The notes beneath the pieces are model-generated. The model was given only the letters and a program-made list of their open reading frames with translations. It was not told the DNA's origin and ran no database searches. Positions 14,454 to 64,000 of a stretch of DNA of 64,000 bases are shown here, piece by piece (the first letter of the stretch is position 1; the number at the start of each line of letters is the position of its first letter). The position numbers and the translations under genes are program-made. Source of the stretch: Isurus oxyrinchus. Taxonomy: Eukaryota. The DNA lies in the NCBI GenBank assembly GCA_026770705.1, contig JANJGN010000026.1, forward strand, positions 34,348,001 to 34,412,000. Direction: 5' to 3'.

Positions 14454-15125
14454 TCACTTATGAACTTGCTGGTGTCTCAGCAGTGTGGATGACCGACCAA
14501 ATCTTTTCCCACACATGGAGCAGGTGAATGGCTTCTCCCCAGTGTGAACTTGCTGGTGTCGCAGAAGGGTGCATGTCTGAGTGAATCTCTTCCCACACAC
14601 GGAGCATGAGAATGGCTTCTCCCCAGTGTGAGTGCGCTGGTGTACAGTGAGGTCAGATGATTGCTTGAACCCAATCCCACAGTGAGAGCATCTGAACGGT
14701 CTCTCGTCAGTGTGAACACGTTGATGGGACATCAGTTCCCCAGAACTTTTATAGCACTTCCCACAGTTTGGGCATTGAAAAGGTCTCTCATCAGTGTGAA
14801 CTCGCTGGTGTCTCAGCAGGTTGGATGACTGAGTGAATCCCTTCCCACACTCAGAGCAGATGAATGGTCTCTCCCCAGTGTGAATGCGCTGATGTGCCAG
14901 CAGATGGGATGAGGTAGTGAATCCCTTCCCACACTTGGGGCAGGTAAACGGCCTCTCTCCGGTGTGAATGCGCCGATGAATTTCCAGCCTAACTGGATAA
15001 CTGAATCCCTTCCCACAATCACCACATTTCCACAGTTTCTCCACAGTTTGACTGTGCTTGTGTCCCGACAGGACAGAACAAGTGTATGGTTTCTCTCCAA
15101 CGTGAACGGTGCTTTTTCCTTCCAT
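14454..15125 (-). CDS. C2H2 zinc-finger protein with 7 intact fingers and no KRAB/SCAN domain
   Basis: Open frame from the ATG at 15125 (MEGKSTVH...). One internally deleted finger is followed by seven CxxC-x12-HxxxH fingers with TGERPF/TDERPF/TGEKPF linkers. Acceptor ctatttcAG near 15235. Confidence 0.88.
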
Positions 15126-15989
15126 GCTCAAAATCCGGTAATATTCAGGTTACAATTAATTGGACAACTTTGCCAGATCCTGATGTGATGTTTGGTTTCA
15201 GTTTCCTGACTGCAAATCCTCCTCTTCTGATACCCTGAAATAGAAAAAAGGGAGTGAGAGAGAACCCACAAAAACACACAAAGCCAGGTTGTGAAACTGA
15301 GTTTGTGGGGCCAGCACTAGGAAGAAATGACCATGAAAGTTGATGGATTGTCGTAAAAACACAACTGGTTCACTAATATCCTTCAGGGAAGGGAACCTGC
15401 CTCCCGGTCTGGGCTACACAAGACTCTGGCTTTCATGGGAGGAGAGCAAGAGAAAGAGGTGGGAGAGGCAAAGTGTGGAGACAGAGATTTTATATTTCTA
15501 CAACTTGACCAGAACTTTGACAGGATCTCCCGAACTCTCAGCCTCCACCACCTAGAAGCACCAGAGTAGCAGGTATATACGAACACCATCACCTACAAGT
15601 TCCTCTCCGACTCCACATTGTCCTAACTTGTCTGACATCCAGCACTACATGAAGGCAAATTTCCTCCATTTAACATATGAACATATGAATTAGGAGCAGG
15701 AGTAGGCCACTTGGACCCTGGAGGCTGTTCCGTCATTCAATATGATCATGGCTGATCTGACTGTTACCTCACGCCTACCCCTGATAACCTTTCACCCCCT
15801 TGTTATCAAGAATCTATCTACCTCTCCCTTAAAAATATTCAAAGACTCTGTTTCCACTGCGTTTTGAGGAAGGGAATTGCAAAGGCTCATTAACCTCTGA
15901 GATAAAAAAAAACTCATCATCTCTGTGTTAAATGAGTGACCCCTTATTTTTACATTGTGACCCATATCCTCACTACCACCCTTGATGCT

Positions 15990-39026: not shown

Positions 39027-39035
39027 TCACTTGAT
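39027..39035 (-). CDS. IGHM: IgM TM2 exon (I-K-stop)
   Basis: cttttacAG|ATC AAG TGA, giving cytoplasmic tail KIK. Confidence 0.85.
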   Translation of the reverse strand: MK

Positions 39036-39174: not shown

Positions 39175-39302
39175 CTTCGCCAGAGTGACGGCAGCGCTGT
39201 AGAAAATGCTCAGGAAGAACAGGATGATGAATGTGGAAGCAGTTGTCCAGATGTTGCTGTTATCATCCTCAGAGTCTTCAATCCAGATGCGGTCTGCGGA
39301 AT
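39175..39302 (-). CDS. IGHM: IgM TM1 exon
   Basis: AG acceptor at 39303-39304 and GTGAG donor. Encodes (D)SADRIWIEDSEDDNSNIWTTASTFIILFFLSIFYSAAVTLAK, with the conserved antigen-receptor TM motif. Confidence 0.95.
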
Positions 39303-42226: not shown

Positions 42227-42242
42227 TTTATTATTTTTTATT
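42227..42242 (-). terminator. Poly(A) signals of secreted IgM
   Basis: Two AATAAA on the minus strand (42237-42242 and 42227-42232), about 30-40 nt after the TGA at 42270-42272. Confidence 0.8.
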
Positions 42243-42269: not shown

Positions 42270-42661
42270 TCATTGACATGAATTAACGGTGTCCATCAGT
42301 GCAAGGGAAATGTTCACAAAACTCGGTTTACCGCTGGATTTATCAACAGTTCTGTTGATGATCTTCAAGGGGATCGCTTCATGTCCCACCACACAGGAGT
42401 AAGAAGCGCCGCTGGCCCACTCCTCTGCTGCAATGGATAACAGGCTGTACATGAAGAAGGAGCGATTGTCATTCTCCGCCACCACCTCAGTGTTCTTGTA
42501 ATTCCTGGGATCCACTGGCTTGTCATTGACGGTCCACTTGACGAAAATCTCTCGCGGGGAGAAACCTCTCACTAAGCAGCTGAGGGAGACGAATCTCTGA
42601 GCGGAGACATCTTCTGCCGAGGGCAGGAGGACAGACACGGATGGTTCCTGCGGGTCTTTAT
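42270..42661 (-). CDS. IGHM: IgM Cmu4 exon plus secretory tailpiece
   Basis: ttttctgcAG acceptor. Encodes (D)[17 protein letters not shown]...[17 protein letters not shown]...[43 protein letters not shown], with tail sequon NIS and penultimate Cys. Internal G|GTAAA donor at 42331 for splicing to TM1. Confidence 0.97.
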
Positions 42662-42799: not shown

Positions 42800-42988
42800 A
42801 TCCTTCACTATAGCTGAATCAAAATCCTGGAACTCCCTCCCTAACAGCACTGTGGGTGTATCTACACCACATGGACTGCAGCGGTTCAAGAAGGCAGCTC
42901 ACCACCACCTTGTCAAGGGCAATTAGGGATGGGCAATAACTCTGGCCCAGCCAGCAACGCCCACATCCCATGAATTAATAAATAAAAT
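42800..42988 (+). mobile_element. LINE 3' end sharing its tail with the SINE family
   Basis: Same sequence as ~53505-53680; ends GGGCAATTAGGGATGGGCAATAA..CCCACATCCCATGAAT. Confidence 0.7.
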
Positions 42989-43375
42989 ACTTTGGGATCT
43001 TTCCGGCTTTCCAGCTCGGAGCAGAGGTGGCACAATCCTTTTCCCTGAGAACTTATGGGGATGGACGAGAAAGTTTCTCAAAGTTTACAGCACAGAAACA
43101 GGCCATTCTGCCCAACTGGTCCATGTTGGTGTTTCAGCTTCGCACCAGGCTCCTCCCATCTTGCTTCATCTAAACCCAATGACACAGCCTTCAATTCATT
43201 GTTCATTCATCTACTTATCAATTTGCCCCTGAAAGTCCACAGGCCCAGACCGTTTAGTTGGCGAAATTGTTAATCAGAGTAGACCATGAATACACTGAAT
43301 AGTAAATATTGCTCCTGACACTTACACTGGAAATAGACACATTGAACAACTTATTGCTTCAATCTCACCGCTCAC

Positions 43376-43687
43376 CTGGTTCCTTGTGGATGGAACTTCT
43401 TAAAGGAGTCGGCAGATCCTGATGGCTCACCACACAGTAGAACTCAGCCCCACTCAGCCAGGCTTGTGTCGAGATGTTTACGTTGCTGACCACGCTGTCG
43501 GGATCCTCTCCCGGTTGGACGGCGATCTCTGATTTCAAAGGCTTCTACTCTTGTGTCCAGCTCACGAGGACTCCATACGGAGCTTTAGAAACAATGCAGG
43601 TTAAGGTCACGGTCGCCTCCAGTAAGACCTGTTCTATTGGAGGTGGCAGTAGAGTAATTGTGGGATCGTTGGGGCAGTGGTGATCAC
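43376..43687 (-). pseudogene. IGHM: IgM Cmu3 exon with an in-frame premature TAG (43545-43547)
   Basis: tctcacAG acceptor and GTGAG donor, 312 nt. Encodes [103 protein letters not shown]. Confidence 0.93.
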
Positions 43688-44310
43688 CTGTGAGACAGAA
43701 ATGAAAATCAATCAAAGTTTCACCTTCAGAATCAGTACAGCAGTATTCAGCCTTCACTCCCTAAAGGAGAATAAATCACCTTGGACATATCAACCTCTAA
43801 CTATCGTCTTTAATCTTCTTTACACAATGGAAAAACCAGCTTGGTCTGTGGAAATCATTCCCATAATTTAAGTCCTTCAGCCCCGGTAACATTCTCATGA
43901 ATCTGCGTTGCCCCAGTCCCAATACAAATGTATCATTCCTGGGCCCTGGAATGCAGTACTGAAAGCTGTTTTATAAGTAGGGTGGATGCACTTTCCAACA
44001 CTCCATCCTGAAGCTGTTACCAGTGAAGTGTTCCAGACACCTTCTGCCTATCCAAATATGATCAGCTGACTCAGGGTAAAGCTGATATCAAGTCCACCTC
44101 ACTCACTCTATGACGTCAATGTAGAGACGTGATGTGATAAAATCCTGAATGGTGAACAATCCGAATGTAGCAGTTACATCAGAATTAAATACCAACTACA
44201 TGAGAATAAATTAGAAATTCTTCTGTGCTTGTACTAACTCCAATAAATTCCTGATTCGACTAACATCGGAGAGCAGAATGATCTATCCTTCCTCGGTTTG
44301 TATTTCTTAC

Positions 44311-44625
44311 CATCGCACTTGGTGGCGTTTCGACTTTGGGTGACCCCTTGGTGAGTGACCTGACAGGTATAGACCGCGTCACTGAACCATTCTCCAGCGG
44401 AGACTGTCAGCCGACTGGTCGCCGAGAAGTTCCCATTCACTTCAAAGATAGGAGAGGTGACAATTCCTGAATCCATGGGTTGTCCATTCTTCAGCCACTT
44501 CACGGTGATTGACATTGAACGGAGATCGGTGATTGAACAGACGGCGGTTGCAAATTTGTTCGTTCTGATTTCTTCCCGGGAACTCACGGTGAGGAGAACA
44601 GTTGGAGGTAAGTCAGGATGAGGAC
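44311..44625 (-). CDS. IGHM: IgM Cmu2 exon
   Basis: ttttgaAG acceptor and GTAAG donor, 315 nt. Encodes (C)[15 protein letters not shown]...AVCSITD...VKWLKNG...[39 protein letters not shown]. Confidence 0.95.
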
Positions 44626-44824: not shown

Positions 44825-45124
44825 ATTGCATTTCAACGCTCTTGTCTGAGTTGCTGTATTGAACTTCACACTTGATTATGCTGCATTCCCCCTCTGACTC
44901 GGTGATGGTTAACTGGCTGCTCAGAGTGTAGGTTCCCTTCTGGTTTCTCACTGACGGGTAAGTCTTAAATCCAGTGGTGATCTGCTGCCCATCTTTCTTC
45001 CAGGTCAGGCTGGTGATTTCTGGGGAGTAGTCCATCGCCAAACAGCCGTAGGTGACGGAGCTGTCGGTGTTGTGTTGCTGACAGGAGGAGACCAGGCTGT
45101 AGAGAGTGGGCGAAGACGGTGTCG
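44825..45124 (-). CDS. IGHM: IgM Cmu1 exon
   Basis: ttcccAG acceptor and GTAAGT donor, 300 nt. Encodes (A)[45 protein letters not shown]...[35 protein letters not shown]. Confidence 0.96.
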
Positions 45125-45679: not shown

Positions 45680-47210
45680 ACATATGAACATGCGGATTAG
45701 TAGCAGGAGTAGGCCATTCGGCCTCTCTAGCCTCCTCCACCATTCACTCCGATCATAGATGATATGATTGTGGCGTTAACTCCACATTCCCGCCTACTCT
45801 CCGCAAACCTTTGACTCCCTTGTCAATGAAAAATCTCTCTACCTCTGCCTTGAAATTTTAATGACTCCTCCTCCATCGCTCCCTGGGGAAGAGAGTTCCA
45901 AAGTTATACGACCCTTTGAGAAAAAATAAAATCTCCTCATTTCCGTCTGAAACGGGAGACCTCTTATTTTTAAACTGTGTTTCCTATCGTTAGTCTGTCC
46001 CCAAGGGGTAACATCCTTTCAGCATCCACCCTGTTAATTCCCCTCAGGATCTTATATGTTTCAATGAAATCAGCTCTCATTCTTCTAAACTCCAATAGAT
46101 ACAGGCCCAGCCTATCCAAATTTCCACATAAGATAACCGACGACACCTCCCAGTATCATTTGAATGAACATTCTCTTAACAGCTTCTAATGCTTTTATAT
46201 CCTTTCTTAAATGAGACCAAATCTGTACACAGTAATTCAGAAGAGGTCTCATCGATGCCCCGTTAAACTGTAGCAAAATATCCTTCCATTTATATTCTAT
46301 TCCCCTTGTAATAAATGCCAACACTCCCTTTGCCTTTCTCATTACTTGCTGTTCCTGTATTATGACTTTTTGTGGTTCATACACCAAGGGATGCACATTC
46401 CTCTGACCCTGCAATCTCTCTCCCTTTCAATAATATGCTGCTTTTGTATTCTTCCTGCCAAAGTGGACACATTTATATTTTCCCACATTATACTCCATCT
46501 GTCATTTTTTTGCCCACTCACTGAACCTATCGATTTCCCTTTGCTGACCCTTTATCCCCTCTTCACCATTTACTTTCTTATCTGTCTTTGTGTCATCAGC
46601 AAATTTAGCAAATTCATTCAGTCCTTTCATTCAAGTCATTGATATAAATTGTAAATAGTTGAGGCTGCAGCATTGATCCCTGTGGCACTCCACTTGTCAC
46701 ATCTTGCCAACCTAAAATACCTAATTTATCTCTGCTCTCTGTTTCTTGTTAGCTAACCAAACTTCTACCCATGCTGAAATGTTACTGCTGACATCATTAT
46801 TTTGTGCAGTAACCTTTGATATGCCACTTTGTCAAATTCCTTCTGGAAGCCCAAATACAGCACACCCACAGGTTCTCCTTTATTCATGTTCCTTGTTACT
46901 TATTCTAGAGGCCTCAAATAAGTCAACCAAACATGATTTTCCTTTCACAAAATCATGACGGGTTTGCATAATTGCATTTGAATTTTATAAGTGACCCGTG
47001 ATAGATTCCTTAATAATCGATTCCAGCATTTTTGCTTGGACAGATGTTAATCTAATTGGCCTGTAGTTACTTGCTTTCCCTTTCCCTCCTTTATTTAACA
47101 TAAAAGACTCATTCTCTATGTTCCAATCTGATGAGATCTTTCCAGAATCTAGGCAAGTTTGGAAAATTAAAACCAATGCCTCTGCTATTTTAGTAACTAC
47201 CTTGTTAAGG
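45680..47210 (-). mobile_element. Older CR1 LINE RT fragment in the J-C intron
   Basis: KGKASNYRPIRLTSVQAKMLESIIK and RPLLNYCVQIWS; CR1 3' UTR near 45690. Confidence 0.85.
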
Positions 47211-47719
47211 CGAAAATATTTGTCCAACTTCTCTGCACGTTTCCTTATTTTCCTTTATTATGGGCTTGTCCAATCCGTGTCCAATGGCTGGATTCTGACC
47301 CTCCCCGAAGCCCCTTTATGTGGCCCCCGGAGCTGTTGTTCTACAGGCTGGTGAGGCGGGTAAGTGGAGTTGAAGATTTCTGTAAGGAGCAGCTCCTCCA
47401 ATCACAGGCTGGTCTTCGACCCCGTTAGCTGCTGATAGGCTGATTAGCAGATCAGCAGTAAAAGTGGAAGACAAACGGGTTGTGATTGGAGGGGCAGTGA
47501 ACACCCACTGGAGAAAGGCGCAGGGAGCCTGTGGGGGGGGGGGGGAAATGCACGGAGACATTGTCTCCCTTCTATCCCAGGCACTGAGTGCCTTTCTCCG
47601 GGAATGGAAAGGATTTCAGGAGGGGGAGAGACAATGAGGGAGAGAGTTAGAGAGAGTTAGAGAGAGTGGGGCCCAGGGCGTCTGATGCATCCGCTTGCGA
47701 CTGCTTTCGCCCGGCTCTC

Positions 47720-50050
47720 CCTGCTATAGCCCAGCTCTCAGCCCTTTTCCCACCCCCCGCCTCTCTGCACTTTCCCCTCCACCTCTCTGTCCTTTCTCCC
47801 CCAGCTCTCCGCACTTACTCCACGGCTTTATTCATTTTCACCTGGCTCTCTGACCTTTCCTCCAGCTTGCTGACATTTCCCCCTCAGCCCTTTCCCGCCC
47901 CCACCTCTCTGCCCTTCTCCCCCTCTGCCTCTCCGTTCTACTGCCTCCCTGCCCTCTCCCCCACCGTCTCTCTGCCCTTTCCCCCTCTCACTTCTCTGCC
48001 CTTTCCCCTTGCCGCCTCTCTGCACGTCCCACCCCCCGCTTCTCTGCCCTGCCGCACTGCCCTTCCCCACCCACTGCTCTGCCCTTCACCCCCGCCTCTG
48101 TGCTCTTTCCCTTCTCCTCTCTACGCATTCCCACCCGCCTCTCTGCTCTTTTCCCCTCCTGCATTTTTGCCCTTTCCTCCTCCTCTATGCTCTTCCCCCC
48201 GCCACCTCTCTGCCCATTCCCACTCCCGCCTCACTGCCCTTTACACCCATTGCCTCTCTGCCCTTTCCCCCTCCCACCTCTCTGCCCTTACCCCCCTCCC
48301 CACCTCTCTATCCTTTCTCCGTTACCTCTCTGCCCTTTCTCCCCCAGCTCTCTGCGTGCACTCCACTGCGCTCTGCGCTTTCGCCCGGCTCTCTGACCTT
48401 TTCCATTGGTTCATTGCCCGTTCCCCTGGCTCGCTGCCCTCTCCATCCTCTGCCTCTCTGCCCTTTCCTTCCCCCACCTCTCTGCCCTTTCCCCCTCTGC
48501 CTGTCTGCTCTCCCACCTCCTTGCCCTTTCCCCCACCTGCCCCTCTGCCCGTTCCCTCTCTGGACTTTCCCCCTCCCGCCTCTGAGCCCTTTCCCCCTCC
48601 TGCCTCTCTGCCCTTTCCCCATCCCGCCTCTCGGCCCATTCCCCCTCCCACCTCTCTGCCCTTTCCCTCTCTGCCCTTTCTCCCTCCTGCCTCTCTGCCC
48701 TTTCCCTGCACCTCTCTGCCCTTTCCCCAGCTCATTGCCCTTTCCATCAACTCTCTGCCCTCTCTCCCCCAGCTCTCTGTGTGCACTCCACTGCGCTCGG
48801 TGCTTTCATCTCTGACCTTTTCTAGTGGTTCATTGCCCATTCCCCTGGCTCGTTGCCCTCTCCATCCTCTGCCTCTCTGCCCTTTCCTGCCCCCCACCTC
48901 TCTGTCTTTAACCCCTCTGCCTCTCTGCCCACCCTCCTCTGTCTTTAACCCCTCTGCCTCTTTGCCCACCCTCCTCTCTGTCTTTAACCCCTCTGCCTCT
49001 CTGCTCTGCCTCCTCTCTGCCCTTTTCCCCTCCCACCTCTCTGACTTTTCCCACCCGCCTCTCTGTCCTTCCCCCCTGCCGCCTCTCTGTCCTTTCCCCC
49101 ACCCACCTTGCTGCCCTTTCCCCTGTCACCCCTCCGCCTCTCTACCCTCCCGCCTCTCTGCCCTTTCCCCCTCCTGCCTCTCTGTGCTTCCCCCCAACTC
49201 TCTGCCCTTCCCCTCCCGCCTCTCTGCCTTTTCACACCCAGCTCTCTACTCTTACTCCACAGCTTTCTGTGCTTTTGCCTGGCTCTCCGACCTTTCCCAC
49301 TTGCTCTCTGCCCATTCCCCAGCGCGCTGACCTTTCTGTTGCCTCTCTGCCCTTTCCATCACCTATCTGCTGGTCCCACCGCCCCCCCTCTTCTCTGCCC
49401 TCCTGCCTCTCCGCCCTTTCCCCCATGCACCTCTCTGCCCTTTCCCCTACTGCCTTTCTCCCCTCTCTCCTCTCTGCCCTTTTCCCTTCCCGCCGCTATG
49501 CCCTTTCCCCCCCTGCTTCTCTGCCCTTTCCACCTTCCACCTCTCTGCCCTTTCCCCCTCCCCACCTCTCTGCCCTTTCCCCCACGCGCCTCTCTGCCCT
49601 TTCCCCTACTGCCTTTCTCCCCTCCCTCCTCTATGCCCTTCCCCCCCGCCTCTATGCCCTTTCCCCCCCGCCTCTATGCCCTTTCCCCCCCGCCTCTCTG
49701 ACCTTTCCCCCTCTCACCTCTATACCCTTTTCCACCCCACCTCTCTGCCCTTTCACTGGCTCGCTGACATTTCCCCCTGCTTGCTGACCTTTGCCCGAAC
49801 CCGATGCACTTTCCGTTGGGTTCCTGCCCTTTTCCCCGTCTCTTTACCCTTCCCCCACAACACCCGCCCCACCCATGGCTCTCTGCCATTTCCCTCGACT
49901 CCCTACCCTTTCCCCCAGGCCCTCCGAGCTTTCCCCCGCCTCCCTGCCCTTTCCAATGAAGCTCGTCGCTTCCTTCAGCTGTGCTCCACTTTCTGGCACT
50001 GCTAGGCCTCAGGCCTCACTTCCAGGTCTCTCTTCTCTGCAGTTCCCGCC
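47720..50050. repeat. Polypyrimidine/polypurine tandem repeat, G-rich on the IgH sense strand
   Basis: Dozens of CCTCTCTGCCCTTTCCCC-type units, with higher-order blocks starting CCCAGCTCTC at ~47800, 48342, 48768 and 49237. Confidence 0.95.
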
Positions 50051-56987: not shown

Positions 56988-57035
56988 CGGCAGTCACTGT
57001 CATCATGGTCCCTTTCCCCCAGTAGCCCATAGCGT
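56988..57035 (-). CDS. IGHJ: JH segment (AMGYWGKGTMMTVTA)
   Basis: WGxG motif and GTAAG donor at 56987. The 5' RSS is CACAGTG (57036-57042), a 23-bp spacer and ACAATAACT (57066-57074). Confidence 0.96.
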
Positions 57036-57431
57036 CACAGTGTTACATTCCCTGGGCTGTGCCATACAATAACTGTCCCTGCACCAAAAAGACAGAAATC
57101 CACCATTATTTTAAATATTCATAAGCCAGAGGCAAAGTAAGATCACGATGAATCTTCACGAAATTATATTTGCTTTTGTGGATATCTTTAGCTATTCATC
57201 AATGATCCTCATGTTTTATAATTCACAGAATAACGCATGAACATGTTATTGAATTCACCAACTGATGAATGGATAATTATCACGGCTTTTCCATCTTAAA
57301 CCACGTTTTTTGGGCAGTGCTGGACAGAAATAATACTTCATTGTAAATATAGCAGGATTGTAAAAGCGAGCACTGACCCAGGCAGACTCAATTAGTGCTG
57401 AGGGGTTTTTGCATTGTCAGTAACTGCTGTG

Positions 57432-57444
57432 CCATCCAGTATAT
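57432..57444 (-). other. IGHD: DH2 segment ATATACTGGATGG flanked by 12/12 RSS
   Basis: Plus strand reads GGTTTTTGC (57404-57412), 12 bp, TGCTGTG (57425-57431), D, CACAATG (57445-57451), 12 bp, TCAAATACT (57464-57472). Confidence 0.92.
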
Positions 57445-57825
57445 CACAATGAGAGACACCATGTCAAATACTGTGGCAGACTGTTAACTGTAAATACAGA
57501 GATTTAATCTCACTGCGCTCTCAAAAACCAGATTCCGACACGCCTAAGAGTGAATCAGTGAGATATTTCAGCTTGTGCTGAAATTTATATTTATATTTAT
57601 AAATGTGATTGGAGTTCTTTAAAGCCTCTGTGAAGATTTAGCGTGTCCGTAAACACAAACAAAGCGGAAGACTTTTATATATTTTTACAAACCAATATTA
57701 CTTATACCCATTATTTTATTTAGCTCCCATTTTCTTTGACGTTTCCTGTTGTGATCGTGATCACCAATTTGAACAAACTCCTTCTGAGGTTTTTGTATGA
57801 GGATGTCGCTGTGCACAGCACTGTG

Positions 57826-57842
57826 ACTCGCTGCTGTGGTAT
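57826..57842 (-). other. IGHD: DH1 segment ATACCACAGCAGCGAGT flanked by a 5' 12-RSS and a 3' 22-RSS
   Basis: Plus strand reads GGTTTTTGT (57788-57796), 22 bp, CACTGTG (57819-57825), D, CACGGTG (57843-57849), 12 bp, ACAAAAACT (57862-57870). Confidence 0.94.
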
Positions 57843-58231
57843 CACGGTGAAATACAACCGCACAAAAACTTCACCCACTCTCTATTCAGTGCCGCCTCTC
57901 AATATTCACTTCAAATAGATGTTTACCTCTGATCTAGTTTAGTATTTATGCAGCAATTTACAAAATTCAATGAACAGTGATCCCCTCCAAGTATTAAAAT
58001 GAACATTATATCCAGGTCTGTAATTGTGGAAACTGTTAACAGTAAATATAAACACAGCCAAAAGCTCAGCTCATTATATCAATTGGTTTGTTAGGTTTTT
58101 CTGCTAACTTTGCTGTCTTAGTTTTGTCAGAAGCGGCTTGTTGTCGGCTTCTGATCATTACAGTTAATATCACATTTAAAACAAGTACTTACCGTCAGGT
58201 TACGATGGAAGTTATTGAGTTTCTCTCAATC

Positions 58232-58270
58232 TGTTCTTGTTCGGGTCCAGCCCTGGTTCCTCTCGCTGTG
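58232..58270 (-). promoter_or_regulatory. VH 23-RSS
   Basis: CACAGCG (58270-58264), 23-bp spacer, ACAAGAACA (58240-58232). Confidence 0.92.
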
Positions 58271-58575
58271 GTCTGCTGCACAGTAATAGATGGCGGTGTC
58301 TTCAGCCTTCAGGTTCGTCATGTCCAAGGAGAAGATGTTTCTTGAAGTGTCTTTGGACGCAGTAAATCGATCTTCAATTGCTGGGGCATAGTTGTTGATG
58401 GATGAACTATAGTAGCTAACCAACCACTCCAGCCCCTGTCCGGGAACCTGTCGGACCCAACACATGAAGTTGCTGCCAAGATCGAAGCCGCTGGTTTTAC
58501 AGGTCAGTCTCAGGGAGCCTCCGAGACGCCCAGTCTCTGCCTCAGGCTGAGTCAACACAACATCCGACTGGACAC
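58271..58575 (-). CDS. IGHV: VH exon (open frame)
   Basis: ttttacAG acceptor. Encodes (R)[101 protein letters not shown]. Confidence 0.97.
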
Positions 58576-58711: not shown

Positions 58712-58757
58712 GGGATAAGATAGTCAGTAACAAAATGAGAGAAATCGCCGACCTCAT
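58712..58757 (-). CDS. IGHV: VH leader exon (MRSAISLILLLTILS); alternative upstream ATG at 58769
   Basis: 46-nt phase-1 exon encoding a hydrophobic signal peptide, GTGAGT donor at 58711, 136-nt intron. Confidence 0.92.
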
Positions 58758-58799
58758 CCTTCTGGTCATTTGGGGAAAATGGTTCTGTCCAGAACTCAG

Positions 58800-60980: not shown

Positions 60981-61758
60981 CAAAGAATGGAGGGATGGCT
61001 ACAGTGATGTGGGAAATGAATGGTAGTTGGATGCCTGAACATTGTCATTAAGGGATCAGTGAATGAACTGATCGATAGGCGCGTCTGGAAGATGCTGTTC
61101 TACCTTCTCATCTTGATATTTGACTATTTCATACCTTGAAGCAGGTCCAGTTTTTCATTTGTATCAGTCTAATACCTTCAGTCTCCCCAGATTTTCTGGA
61201 TGTATTCCATCCTCAGGTTAACAAGCTGAACTTCACCAAGAGAAGGATGGAGATGTCCCTGAGGTACTGATGAATCTTCCCTGCTGATGGGGAATCATCA
61301 CCTTTCAGACAGAAAGCGGGTGCATAATTCGGTTTAGGACGGAGGATTGTAATATTTGGAAGATGTGGTACTTCCATGTAAAACAAAGCATTCAACATAC
61401 CCTCACCCAAATTAGCGAAGGTAACAAACATTACTCACTGGAGAGGCGCATTAACTTACAGTCAGGTCCAGGTAGTTTTATTTATACTATCACTTTATAA
61501 ATCCTCAAACGCTGCAGTTATATATCAGGAGTTTCTGCGTGATGATAAATTGGTTACCTGTCAATAAAGTGCAGAGACTGCTAGGTAACTGCTCATTATC
61601 CTCGGTCCGATTTAATTCTATTTCCCAATGAATTCTGGGACAGATGTGATTCCTTGCTGACAGAATGGTCAAGATGATCTCAATCAATGTTAATGATATT
61701 AAATGAACCAGAATTACATTTTGTATGAAATAAAATTCTGAAAATGATTGGTACATGC

Positions 61759-61853
61759 AATTATTTATCTTTGTGAATGGATGAAAATTCGTGAATATAA
61801 TTATTTATCTTCATGAATTGATAATAATTGGTGTATATAATTATTTATCTTTC
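61759..61853. repeat. 40-bp AT-rich tandem repeat, about 2.4 copies
   Basis: AATTATTTATCTT recurs at 61759, 61799 and 61839. Confidence 0.85.
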
Positions 61854-61899
61854 TCAGCCTTTACGACCTTCTTCTACTCTGCTAAAAGATAAGATCCGT

Positions 61900-63140
61900 T
61901 TTCACAGGAGGTGAATAATGCAAAAATCACCACACTATCTGAAAACAAAGCCGACAGATGAGACTGCAACAACTACAGTGATATCTCACTCATAGAGTTA
62001 CGGGGAAGGCCTTTGCTGGGGTCATGCTTTAAAGACTTCATCTGGTTGCAGGCTGCAGCACAGTGTGATGTTTTTGTCGGAAATATTCTCTGGAAATGAT
62101 CTGCTCCAAATGCTCGACACTGTCAGAAGAACAGGACTCTGCAAGATTTCGGGAAAAGTTGACTATCCACCAAAGCTCCTCAGTATGATTCACTCCTTCC
62201 ATGACAACATGCACTGCACTGCACAGATTGATGATTCCACGAAGTGAAGAATGGAGTAAAGAATGGAATGAAACAGGCCTGTATCTTAGCCTTACTCTTT
62301 TTGGCATCTTCTTCCCCATGCTGCTGATCTTTGCTTTCCCTGCAGATATGGAAGGAGTCAGGCTGCAAGCTGTACAATCTATAAGACTGAAAGCGAAGAC
62401 ATAAGCACATTGAATCCTGATCAGAGAATACTTCTATGCTGATAACCCTGTCGTCACAAAGAAACCTTACCCTCAAAGAATCATGAACTGACTCTCCCAT
62501 TCCTGTAACTTGTTCTCCCTGACTATAAGCATGGAGCAAACCGTGGTCATGGGACAAGGTGTTGTACTTTCACCATTGATCACACTAAATAACACCCGGA
62601 TGGAAGTAAATTCCACTCCCTGTGTTCCACGGTGGCAGGCAGCCTGTTCCTTGCTGCAGAACTTGATGCCTGCATGGGAAAAGCAGCTGCCACCTTTGGC
62701 TGACTCATGAAACGCCATTGGAATAAAATCAAACTGGCCCTTAGGACCAAGCCTGTGTCCTCAGCACCTTGCTCTATGGCTGTGAAACATGAACAAATTA
62801 TTGTTATCAAGAAAACAAGCTCCACAATTTCCATCTTCACTGCCTGCTGCGCATTATGGATATGTACTGGCAGGATAAAGTCACGAACGCAGTGGTACTC
62901 TCAAAGGCAGAGCTCCCAAAATGCAGAACTCATCAAACAGAAGCAGTTTTTGTGGTTTGGGAACATCCGCAGGATGGATCATGGTCATATACGCAGAAAC
63001 TTTCTGTAAGATGAGGTACCCGGAGGCAGGCAACCAATGGGACGCCCAAAGCTCCGCTTCAAGGATGCTTGACCTTAAATATCAATTATCACAACTGAAT
63101 GCAGCTAACTGATGACTGAGGAAAATGACCACACCTCCTG
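61900..63140 (+). mobile_element. RTE-clade LINE RT fragment
   Basis: Homologous to 13170-13420 (DCNNY.DISL...GKAFA); DTVRRTGL..PPKLLSMIHSFHDNM, LLYAD and LWFGNIRRMDHG. Confidence 0.8.
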
Positions 63141-63837
63141 TGTGTTGGCATGAATCGCCACGATGACCAGCGGCAACAGCGGCTTGGCAGTTGAAGCCAA
63201 TACTGGAATAAAAAGCAACCCACAACGATATTTTGTACCTTCATATGCAGCACTTTCAGCAGAACCTGCCTCACAACAATTGGCCTCCTCAGACATCAGC
63301 ACTTCTGAAATGGATTTGTTTCCATTGTGTGTCTGTGTCCTTTCATAGATAGAAGGTTGTCCAGGATCTTCGTGAAATTCAGTTGCAAACACTATTATGT
63401 GCTTCTCCCTCTCTCTCTCCCTCTCCCTCACACACAGACCAAGATGGCAACTTGTGCTTCAACTTAAGATCTCACTTTGACTTCCTGGGAGGCTCCATAG
63501 CACTTAACTACCGAAGAAAATGACCCTAAATGTCCTTCAGGTGGTATGATGAACCAATAAGATCTCCCCAAAACTATGTTTGTTGAGGTGGACATTAAAG
63601 TTCCTGCCGTCTCTATACAGCTCCCTGGTCAACATCCCTCCCTTTAATCAAGATGAACAAAGATACATCACCAGGAATTAGGCCGCTTTACTCTGGTGCT
63701 GACTTTAACGTGCGCTAATCAACCACGTTCATCTGCAATTAATTGAATTTTGTTAAATTTTGACATCTTCTGCTGAATGCGATGTGGTATTACATCTGGG
63801 GAAGTGGATTCTTGAAACAATAATGTCAAAGATCTAA

Positions 63838-63971
63838 AAACAGAGAGATAAAAACAAAAAAACTCCGGATTGAGTTCTGCTGAAGGGTCATGAGGTCTCG
63901 AAACGTCAACTCTTTTCTTCTCCGCCGATGCTGCCAGACCTGCTGAGTTTTTCCAGGTAATTCTGTTTATA
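63838..63971 (+). mobile_element. 134-bp Penelope-pLTR-derived insertion with a hammerhead motif and 12-bp TSD
   Basis: Flanked by TCAAAGATCTAA at 63826-63837 and 63972-63983. Contains GAGTT-CTGCTGA-A-GGGTC-ATGAG-GTCTC-GAAAC-GTC-AACTC (63872-63912). Confidence 0.75.
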
Positions 63972-64000
63972 TCAAAGATCTAACCTGACAGCGACATTTT

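Follow-up and report, generated by a model that had tools for sequence, protein, structure and literature searches.

The minus strand of the 64,000-nucleotide stretch of Isurus oxyrinchus DNA analysed here (the window) carries a complete V-D-D-J-Cmu IgM cluster, which was mapped over the whole gene (Table 1). The leader, V, D1, D2, J, Cmu1, Cmu2, Cmu4, the secretory tail, TM1 and TM2 are all open, the constant (C) exons have AG and GT ends throughout, and every C junction is in phase 1. One V, two D and one J segment with six compatible recombination signal sequences (RSSs) lie within a V-to-J span of 1,540 nt, and poly(A) hexamers are present at about position 42240, after the secretory stop, and at about 38610, after TM2. 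The exception is the Cmu3 exon, which is interrupted by an in-frame TAG (protein context VSWTQE*KPLKSE) that lies 169 nt above the Cmu3 donor and 140 nt from the other end of the exon. An initial annotation of this DNA had reported the same codon as the lesion of an otherwise open cluster, and reading of all exons bears this out. The same annotation held that, with C junctions in phase 1 and a Cmu3 exon of 312 nt, splicing of Cmu2 to Cmu4 or to TM1 would stay in frame; in silico joining of these exons confirmed that the reading frame is kept in both cases.

Table 1. Features of the window, and clusters elsewhere in the genome with disabling lesions in the C region (window coordinates unless a scaffold is given)
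Feature	Position	Strand	Remarks
Leader exon	58712..58769	-	ATG at 58769, phase-1 donor; same sequence in twin
VH exon	58271..58575	-	open; Pfam V-set, E 2.2e-18
V 3' RSS	58232..58270	-	23-nt spacer; typical of family
D1 with RSSs	57788..57870	-	D1 57842-57826; 5' 12-RSS, 3' 22-RSS
D2 with RSSs	57404..57472	-	D2 57444-57432; 5' 12-RSS, 3' 12-RSS
J 23-RSS and JH	56988..57074	-	JH 57035-56988, open, GT donor
J-Cmu1 intron repeat	47650..50000	-	2.3 kb, degenerate, tandem, unit of about 24 nt
LINE-type reverse-transcriptase fragment	~45850-47250	-	decayed; read from sequence
Cmu1 exon	44825..45124	-	300 nt, open; Pfam C1-set
Cmu2 exon	44311..44625	-	315 nt, open
Cmu3 exon	43376..43687	-	312 nt, strong acceptor and donor, broken at codon 47
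Premature TAG	43545..43547	-	in frame, codon 47 of Cmu3; AAG (Lys) in all other copies examined
Cmu4 and secretory tailpiece	42270..42661	-	Cmu4 330 nt to internal TM donor at 42332; tail ends Cys-Gln-stop
TM1 exon	39175..39302	-	128 nt, open
TM2 coding part	39027..39035	-	Ile-Lys-stop
LINE-type reverse-transcriptase fragment	32242-33228	-	decayed
C2H2 zinc-finger gene exon	14454-15149	-	231 codons open; duplicated with the block
Cluster L067	G000:C26:38.83 Mb		Cmu3 donor GT>TT; all exons open
Cluster L068			TM1 acceptor AG>CG
Cluster L072			1-nt deletion in Cmu1
Cluster L052	C26:30.13 Mb		multi-lesion pseudogene, V open
Cluster L050	C26:29.57 Mb		5' truncation: without Cmu1 and upstream V-D-J
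Cluster L062	C26:36.59 Mb		5' truncation, cut within Cmu1
Cluster L196-L198	C26:25.29 Mb		old multi-lesion pseudogene

Cmu4 and the tail share 91% identity with the corresponding part of Triakis IgM and 88% with that of nurse shark IgM, and the interrupted exon aligns with the third domain (Cmu3 identities of 76% with Triakis, 62% with nurse shark and 87% with horn shark IgM). The cluster therefore encodes a shark IgM, and the interrupted exon is Cmu3. It has four Cmu exons, a tailpiece with a penultimate cysteine, and TM1 and TM2 exons that are spliced from inside Cmu4. The open frame through all C exons that defines a functional IgM gene is broken by the TAG in Cmu3. Its order of elements, VH-D1-D2-JH-Cmu1-4, secretory tail and TM1-TM2, is that of the elasmobranch IgM minilocus exemplified by nurse shark G1-G5, as are the 23/12-22/12-12/23 RSSs, the four C1-set exons, the tailpiece and the TM donor inside Cmu4. 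Identities with the nurse shark, horn shark and Triakis IgM domains range from 62 to 91%. Unlike such a minilocus, the window copy has the premature Cmu3 stop and two deviant RSS heptamers. No tRNA genes were found in the window. Two database entries labelled as hypothetical proteins of Salmonella and Aeromonas (P0001 and P0013) match shark Cmu3-Cmu4 with identities of 95-97% and 76-90%, respectively; they are probably mislabelled contamination.

The six RSSs had been described as intact in the initial annotation. All six were found, but two of the heptamers depart from the family pattern: among 41 other V-D-D-J units examined, the D1 5' heptamer CACGGTG is found in the window copy and its closest relative (the twin, see below) only, and the D2 5' heptamer CACAATG is found in the window copy only. 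Both retain the CAC core, the only part of an RSS heptamer known to be essential.

The intact twin and the condition of other IgM clusters

A genome search with the Cmu3 exon gave 116 candidates, of which 40 matches were scored. Among these best 40, which include the window, all 39 other Cmu3 copies have AAG at the site of the stop, and the codon is also open in 13 of 13 further clusters that have C exons. The stop is shared by none of the 52 other clusters in which C exons were examined. This set consists of 38 clusters, the twin, a group of 10 and a last group of three for which only the frame was checked; one V-only match at a contig end, having no C exons, was excluded.

The twin lies on the same scaffold and the same strand, 3.0 Mb from the window (G000:C26:37.38 Mb), and has open frames in leader, V, J and C exons alike. 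In Cmu3 it differs from the window copy at one position, the stop base, which is also the sole difference between the two over positions 42883-44513; the Cmu3 splice sites and the flanking introns near the exon are the same. Across the C region 53 of 10,000 bases differ (about 0.5%), which makes the two the closest pair among the clusters compared, and the proteins are one residue apart in V and one residue apart in J. The block to which both belong matches over more than 110 kb, with 1,055 substitutions in 105,704 aligned bases (1.0%). Colinearity extends at least over 33.80-34.75 Mb against 36.78-37.73 Mb (about 0.95 Mb), where 8 of 12 sampled pieces matched at 93-99.5%; the four pieces without a partner in the stretches compared, at which the offset drifts by 45 kb, are probably misses. 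A stretch of about 6 kb that starts 2.7 kb above the start codon (window 61440-64000, to window-equivalent 67410) is present in the window copy and in other clusters and absent from the intact twin, a loss that may take upstream regulatory sequence from the latter. Changes private to the window copy are four in number: a missense change in V (Thr>Ala at 58306), the D2 heptamer, a missense change in Cmu2 (Lys>Met at 44514) and the stop. None of them is silent, which fits relaxed selection, the number being too small for statistics.

The odds are about even that the twin is the second allele or, instead, a duplicate of young age. A second haplotype placed in tandem would agree with the existence of exactly two, colinear copies of this cluster type and with a divergence that is about that of pairs between C26 and small unplaced scaffolds. 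A true recent duplicate, on the other hand, would agree with the location of both copies on one scaffold with no gap in any stretch compared, and with the drop in identity to 93% at the right end of the block; moreover, families of about ten copies at 0.6-1.4% show true duplicates of such age. Contig depth was rejected as a means of separating the two, being not proportional to copy number (in run X2 about 40, 52 and 60-75 for one, two and eight assembly copies; in run X1 107 for two and 200-309 for eight copies) and giving between-run ratios of 2.1-3.6. The depths lean weakly to more than two haploid copies.

Disabling C lesions were found in 7 of the 52 other clusters: two 5' truncations, two multi-lesion copies and three copies with a single-base lesion (Table 1). 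With the window included, 8 of 53 clusters are broken, four of them by a single base. Automatic lesion flags in Cmu2 of L060, L079 and L085 and in the secretory tail of L050 and L052 proved to be alignment artefacts and were dropped before counting. A cluster with a single lesion is therefore ordinary in this locus, an argument that is weaker if the lesions of the other clusters are assembly errors. A family with germline-joined D2 and J shows the same pattern as described here, with one copy carrying a donor lesion, one a deletion and one intact. In the nurse shark, 9-12 functional IgM genes and three pseudogenes are given in the text available from PMC5192425, and the pseudogene G2C belongs to a subfamily with the functional G2A and G2B (parts of PMC2435157). 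Like G2C and groups 6-8 of that species, the window copy is a dead cluster amid a functional family; groups 6-8 gave no rearrangement on Southern blots according to the same parts of PMC2435157, whereas the window copy looks able to rearrange.

The survey also revealed variation in the rearranging segments. D2 is joined to J in the germline in L107, L111 and L113 (C210, C151 and C26:38.82 Mb), L124 (C26:37.96 Mb) has a single D, and L121 (C151) has a 10-nt deletion in the D2 5' RSS. In two clusters, L163:4759-5155 (G000:C26:36.125 Mb) and L170 (C152), the whole segment from D2 to J has been turned around precisely at the coding ends, each of which shows two palindromic bases, and the 12- and 23-RSS of D2 and J have changed places; L171 is an uninverted relative that represents the prior state. 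By its sequence, this inversion looks like a germline RAG hybrid joint, of which one case, between D1 and D2, is already known from the accessible text of PMC2193153. The first leader ATG is changed to ATA or GTG in L088, L096, L100 and L124, where a second Met four codons downstream could be used as start. Many of the small scaffolds (C140, C151, C152, C210, C301, C2606 and C3720) carry IgM clusters with V proteins equal to those of C26 clusters; these are probably uncollapsed haplotypes that inflate the gene count.

Interpretation of the interrupted Cmu3 exon

The window cluster, which has an intact twin, is best explained as a null allele of recent origin or a very young pseudogene, a reading to which we assign a probability of about three in four, and the stop itself is likely a recent, real germline mutation. 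A very young pseudogene or null allele was among the possibilities put forward in the initial annotation, and it now gains support from the intact twin and from the recurrence of copies killed by a single base. The twin, which lay outside the view of that annotation, removes most of the surprise of the stop.

The V-D-D-J of such a copy would probably still rearrange and be transcribed, perhaps less well with its two deviant heptamers. With normal splicing, the stop would lie 169 nt above the Cmu3/Cmu4 junction in both the secreted and the membrane mRNA, and both would be targets of nonsense-mediated decay under the rule that a stop is recognized when it is more than 50 nt above the last junction, a rule applied to mammalian IgH mRNA in the part of PMC7072976 available. 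By analogy with these mammalian data, decay of transcripts of the window copy is likely. Any residual protein would stop after 46 Cmu3 residues, that is, within half an Ig domain, and would have neither anchor nor tailpiece; neither the part of the exon ahead of the stop (46 residues) nor the part behind it (56 residues) scores as C1-set, whereas the whole exon of the twin does. With no membrane form there would be no surface receptor, and the B cell would proceed to another of the 50-odd clusters. Continuation with another cluster after a non-productive rearrangement is described for sharks in passages of PMC2435157. Because the redundancy of clusters makes the loss of one nearly free, the observations point to birth-and-death turnover rather than to a new isotype.

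An unlikely alternative is that the assembly has the wrong consensus base at the T and that the cluster is functional. The lesion consists of one base in one copy, it is located in a region of many near-identical copies that is hard to assemble, and TAG is found in no public contig. The contigs used are assembled contigs rather than raw reads, from six runs (X1, X2, X3, X4, X5 and X16) and two samples. None of ten contigs at 98% likeness spans the site with TAG, but the path of the twin is missing as well, so that the absence is uninformative and the test blind. In X3 all contig depth counted at 43547 is AAG, and the path of window and twin (43548-43623) is missing in every run. A k-mer simulation with 40 assembly clusters predicts two pieces, one of 61 nt with the TAG and one of 76 nt that the window and the twin have in common; neither occurs in any of the six runs. 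A pair-specific piece, 43687-43771, is nevertheless present in X1 and X2, and pair-type pieces occur in X3, which indicates that this cluster type exists in two samples; since the two predicted pieces are missing while 43687-43771 is present, the low-depth branch was probably dropped. The public contigs thus neither confirm nor refute the TAG. Against an error speak the near absence of indel errors from exons, since about 72 kb taken from 38 C and 42 V regions contain a single frameshifting indel, and the site itself, which is not a homopolymer. Moreover, private substitutions occur on both members of the pair, three besides the stop on the window copy, which is what true divergence should produce, and a polishing error drawn from paralogs would be expected to leave AAG at the site.

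An improbable reading, also raised in the initial annotation, is that the window copy acts as a VDJ donor, its rearranged VDJ being moved by AID-dependent inter-cluster switching onto an intact C region and expressed. The V-D-D-J is open with its six RSSs, the G-rich repeat in its J-Cmu intron is common to other IgM clusters (see below), and passages of PMC4279169 describe nurse shark VDJs that are expressed together with the C region of a different cluster more than 120 kb distant. Inter-cluster switching of the kind described in the nurse shark by Hsu and colleagues (as reported in parts of PMC4279169 and PMC8201067) would free the window VDJ from its dead C region, but there it is shown between functional clusters, in another species, and PMC4279169, in the text available, places it in activated B cells, which already have a receptor from another cluster. 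Rescue would also add almost no repertoire, V and J of the twin each being a single residue off. Of the clusters found on the same strand, the nearest upstream is at a distance of about 0.4 Mb and the nearest downstream at about 1.8 Mb, and the two deviant heptamers weigh against this reading as well.

It is very unlikely that the stop triggers skipping of Cmu3, or splicing of Cmu2 to TM1, to give a stable three-domain IgM. Both joins are in frame, and the A>T change interrupts the purine-rich run GAG AAG AAG, a type of sequence that may act as a splicing enhancer. Nonsense changes can break an enhancer and cause exon skipping, as described in parts of PMC7072976, and domain-short shark chains exist, namely IgM1gj without Cmu2 and the IgW short forms (passages of PMC4279169 and PMC5192425). 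However, the Cmu3 acceptor and donor are near consensus and identical to those of the twin, no supporting cis change is found over 42883-44513, and the change sits in mid-exon, well away from either end. Cmu3 is missing from none of the 52 other clusters and is kept in 7 of 7 cDNA-type shark heavy chains retrieved; contigs from the presumed RNA run show Cmu2-Cmu3 and Cmu3-Cmu4 joins for the family, in a search with a Cmu3-only query to which skipping is invisible. Skipped Ig products in the mouse are harmful rather than useful in the account available from PMC7072976. A domain-short IgM would have its exon deleted or constitutively skipped, and here the exon is present with strong splice sites. 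The proposal of the initial annotation that the cluster is a source of Cmu3-less IgM thus retains its compatible frames and finds no further backing.

The nurse shark IgM1gj, with three C domains, is one domain short, as a skipped product of the window copy would be, but the domain that it lacks is Cmu2 and not Cmu3, as the initial annotation stated and the retrieved chain sequence agrees. Its V, moreover, is joined in the germline and its protein is expressed, whereas the window copy retains its Cmu3 exon. As judged from splice-site sequence, L067, with TT in place of the Cmu3 donor GT, is a better candidate for Cmu3 skipping than the stop described here. A cryptic acceptor formed by the new AG was rejected, since it would have no pyrimidine tract and would shift the frame, and a cryptic donor formed by the new GT was rejected for its poor context. 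The database proteins P0037 and P0045-P0048, in which Cmu3 seems to be missing, are gene models or fragments and not cDNAs, and were given no weight. In the literature searched, neither this gene nor a shark IgM without Cmu3 was reported. That the stop arose somatically, by hypermutation in the cells sampled, or that it undergoes read-through can hardly be credited: no support for either was found, the cluster is unrearranged, the promoter is about 15 kb away, which puts the site outside the range of hypermutation, and the bases after the TAG are not a known read-through context.

The J-Cmu1 intron repeat and the significance of the cluster

In the J-Cmu1 intron, which was read except for 158 masked bases, the repeat has a sense strand with 52% G and a GC skew of +0.66; its G runs number 35-40 per 500 nt, compared with a background of 6. 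In a genome search, 38 of 40 scored matches fell in J-Cmu introns of known clusters and the other two belonged to further IgM clusters. An exact two-unit pattern gave 117 matches in 4.98 Gb; the 100 that were listed all have the sense orientation and occupy J-Cmu intron positions, and they belong to at least 36 IgM clusters. Used as a probe, the repeat also recovered three IgM clusters that the exon searches had not listed.

Mammalian S-mu is a tandem repeat of 2-3 kb that lies 5' of Cmu and has a G-rich non-template strand with many G runs. The shark intron repeat is alike in each of these respects, being a kilobase-sized tandem repeat 5' of the C gene with a G-rich non-template strand, and on sequence grounds its location, length and strand bias are reminiscent of a switch region. 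It is unlike S-mu in that AID hotspots do not occur at high density: WGCW amounts to 6-9 per 500 nt (8 in the comparison with S-mu; background 9.3) and AGCT to 1-3 (background 1.9), so that neither is enriched. Since common ancestry of all clusters suffices to explain the distribution of the repeat, it is a lead and not evidence of function. Shark Ig loci are described as having no switch regions in passages of two reviews (PMC4279169 and PMC8201067). A literature search found no description of such an intron repeat, and the primary nurse shark papers may describe one. That a C-dead cluster rearranges and that its VDJ is rescued by switching steered by this IgM-specific repeat, as a proto-switch region, is improbable. 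If it were true, the window copy would be a natural reporter, since full-length IgM with its marker bases must have switched, and the switch junctions would fall in the intron repeat.

A dead copy among some 50 IgM clusters is one more case of birth-and-death evolution and as such matters little. It also cautions that any count of genes in this locus lumps alleles together with duplicates and broken copies. If carriers are common, the private bases of the window copy would serve as markers with which nonsense-mediated decay, exon skipping and inter-cluster switching could be followed without engineering. The intron repeat is of more interest than the stop: it bears on how shark switching is directed without switch regions, a question raised in the available text of PMC4279169.
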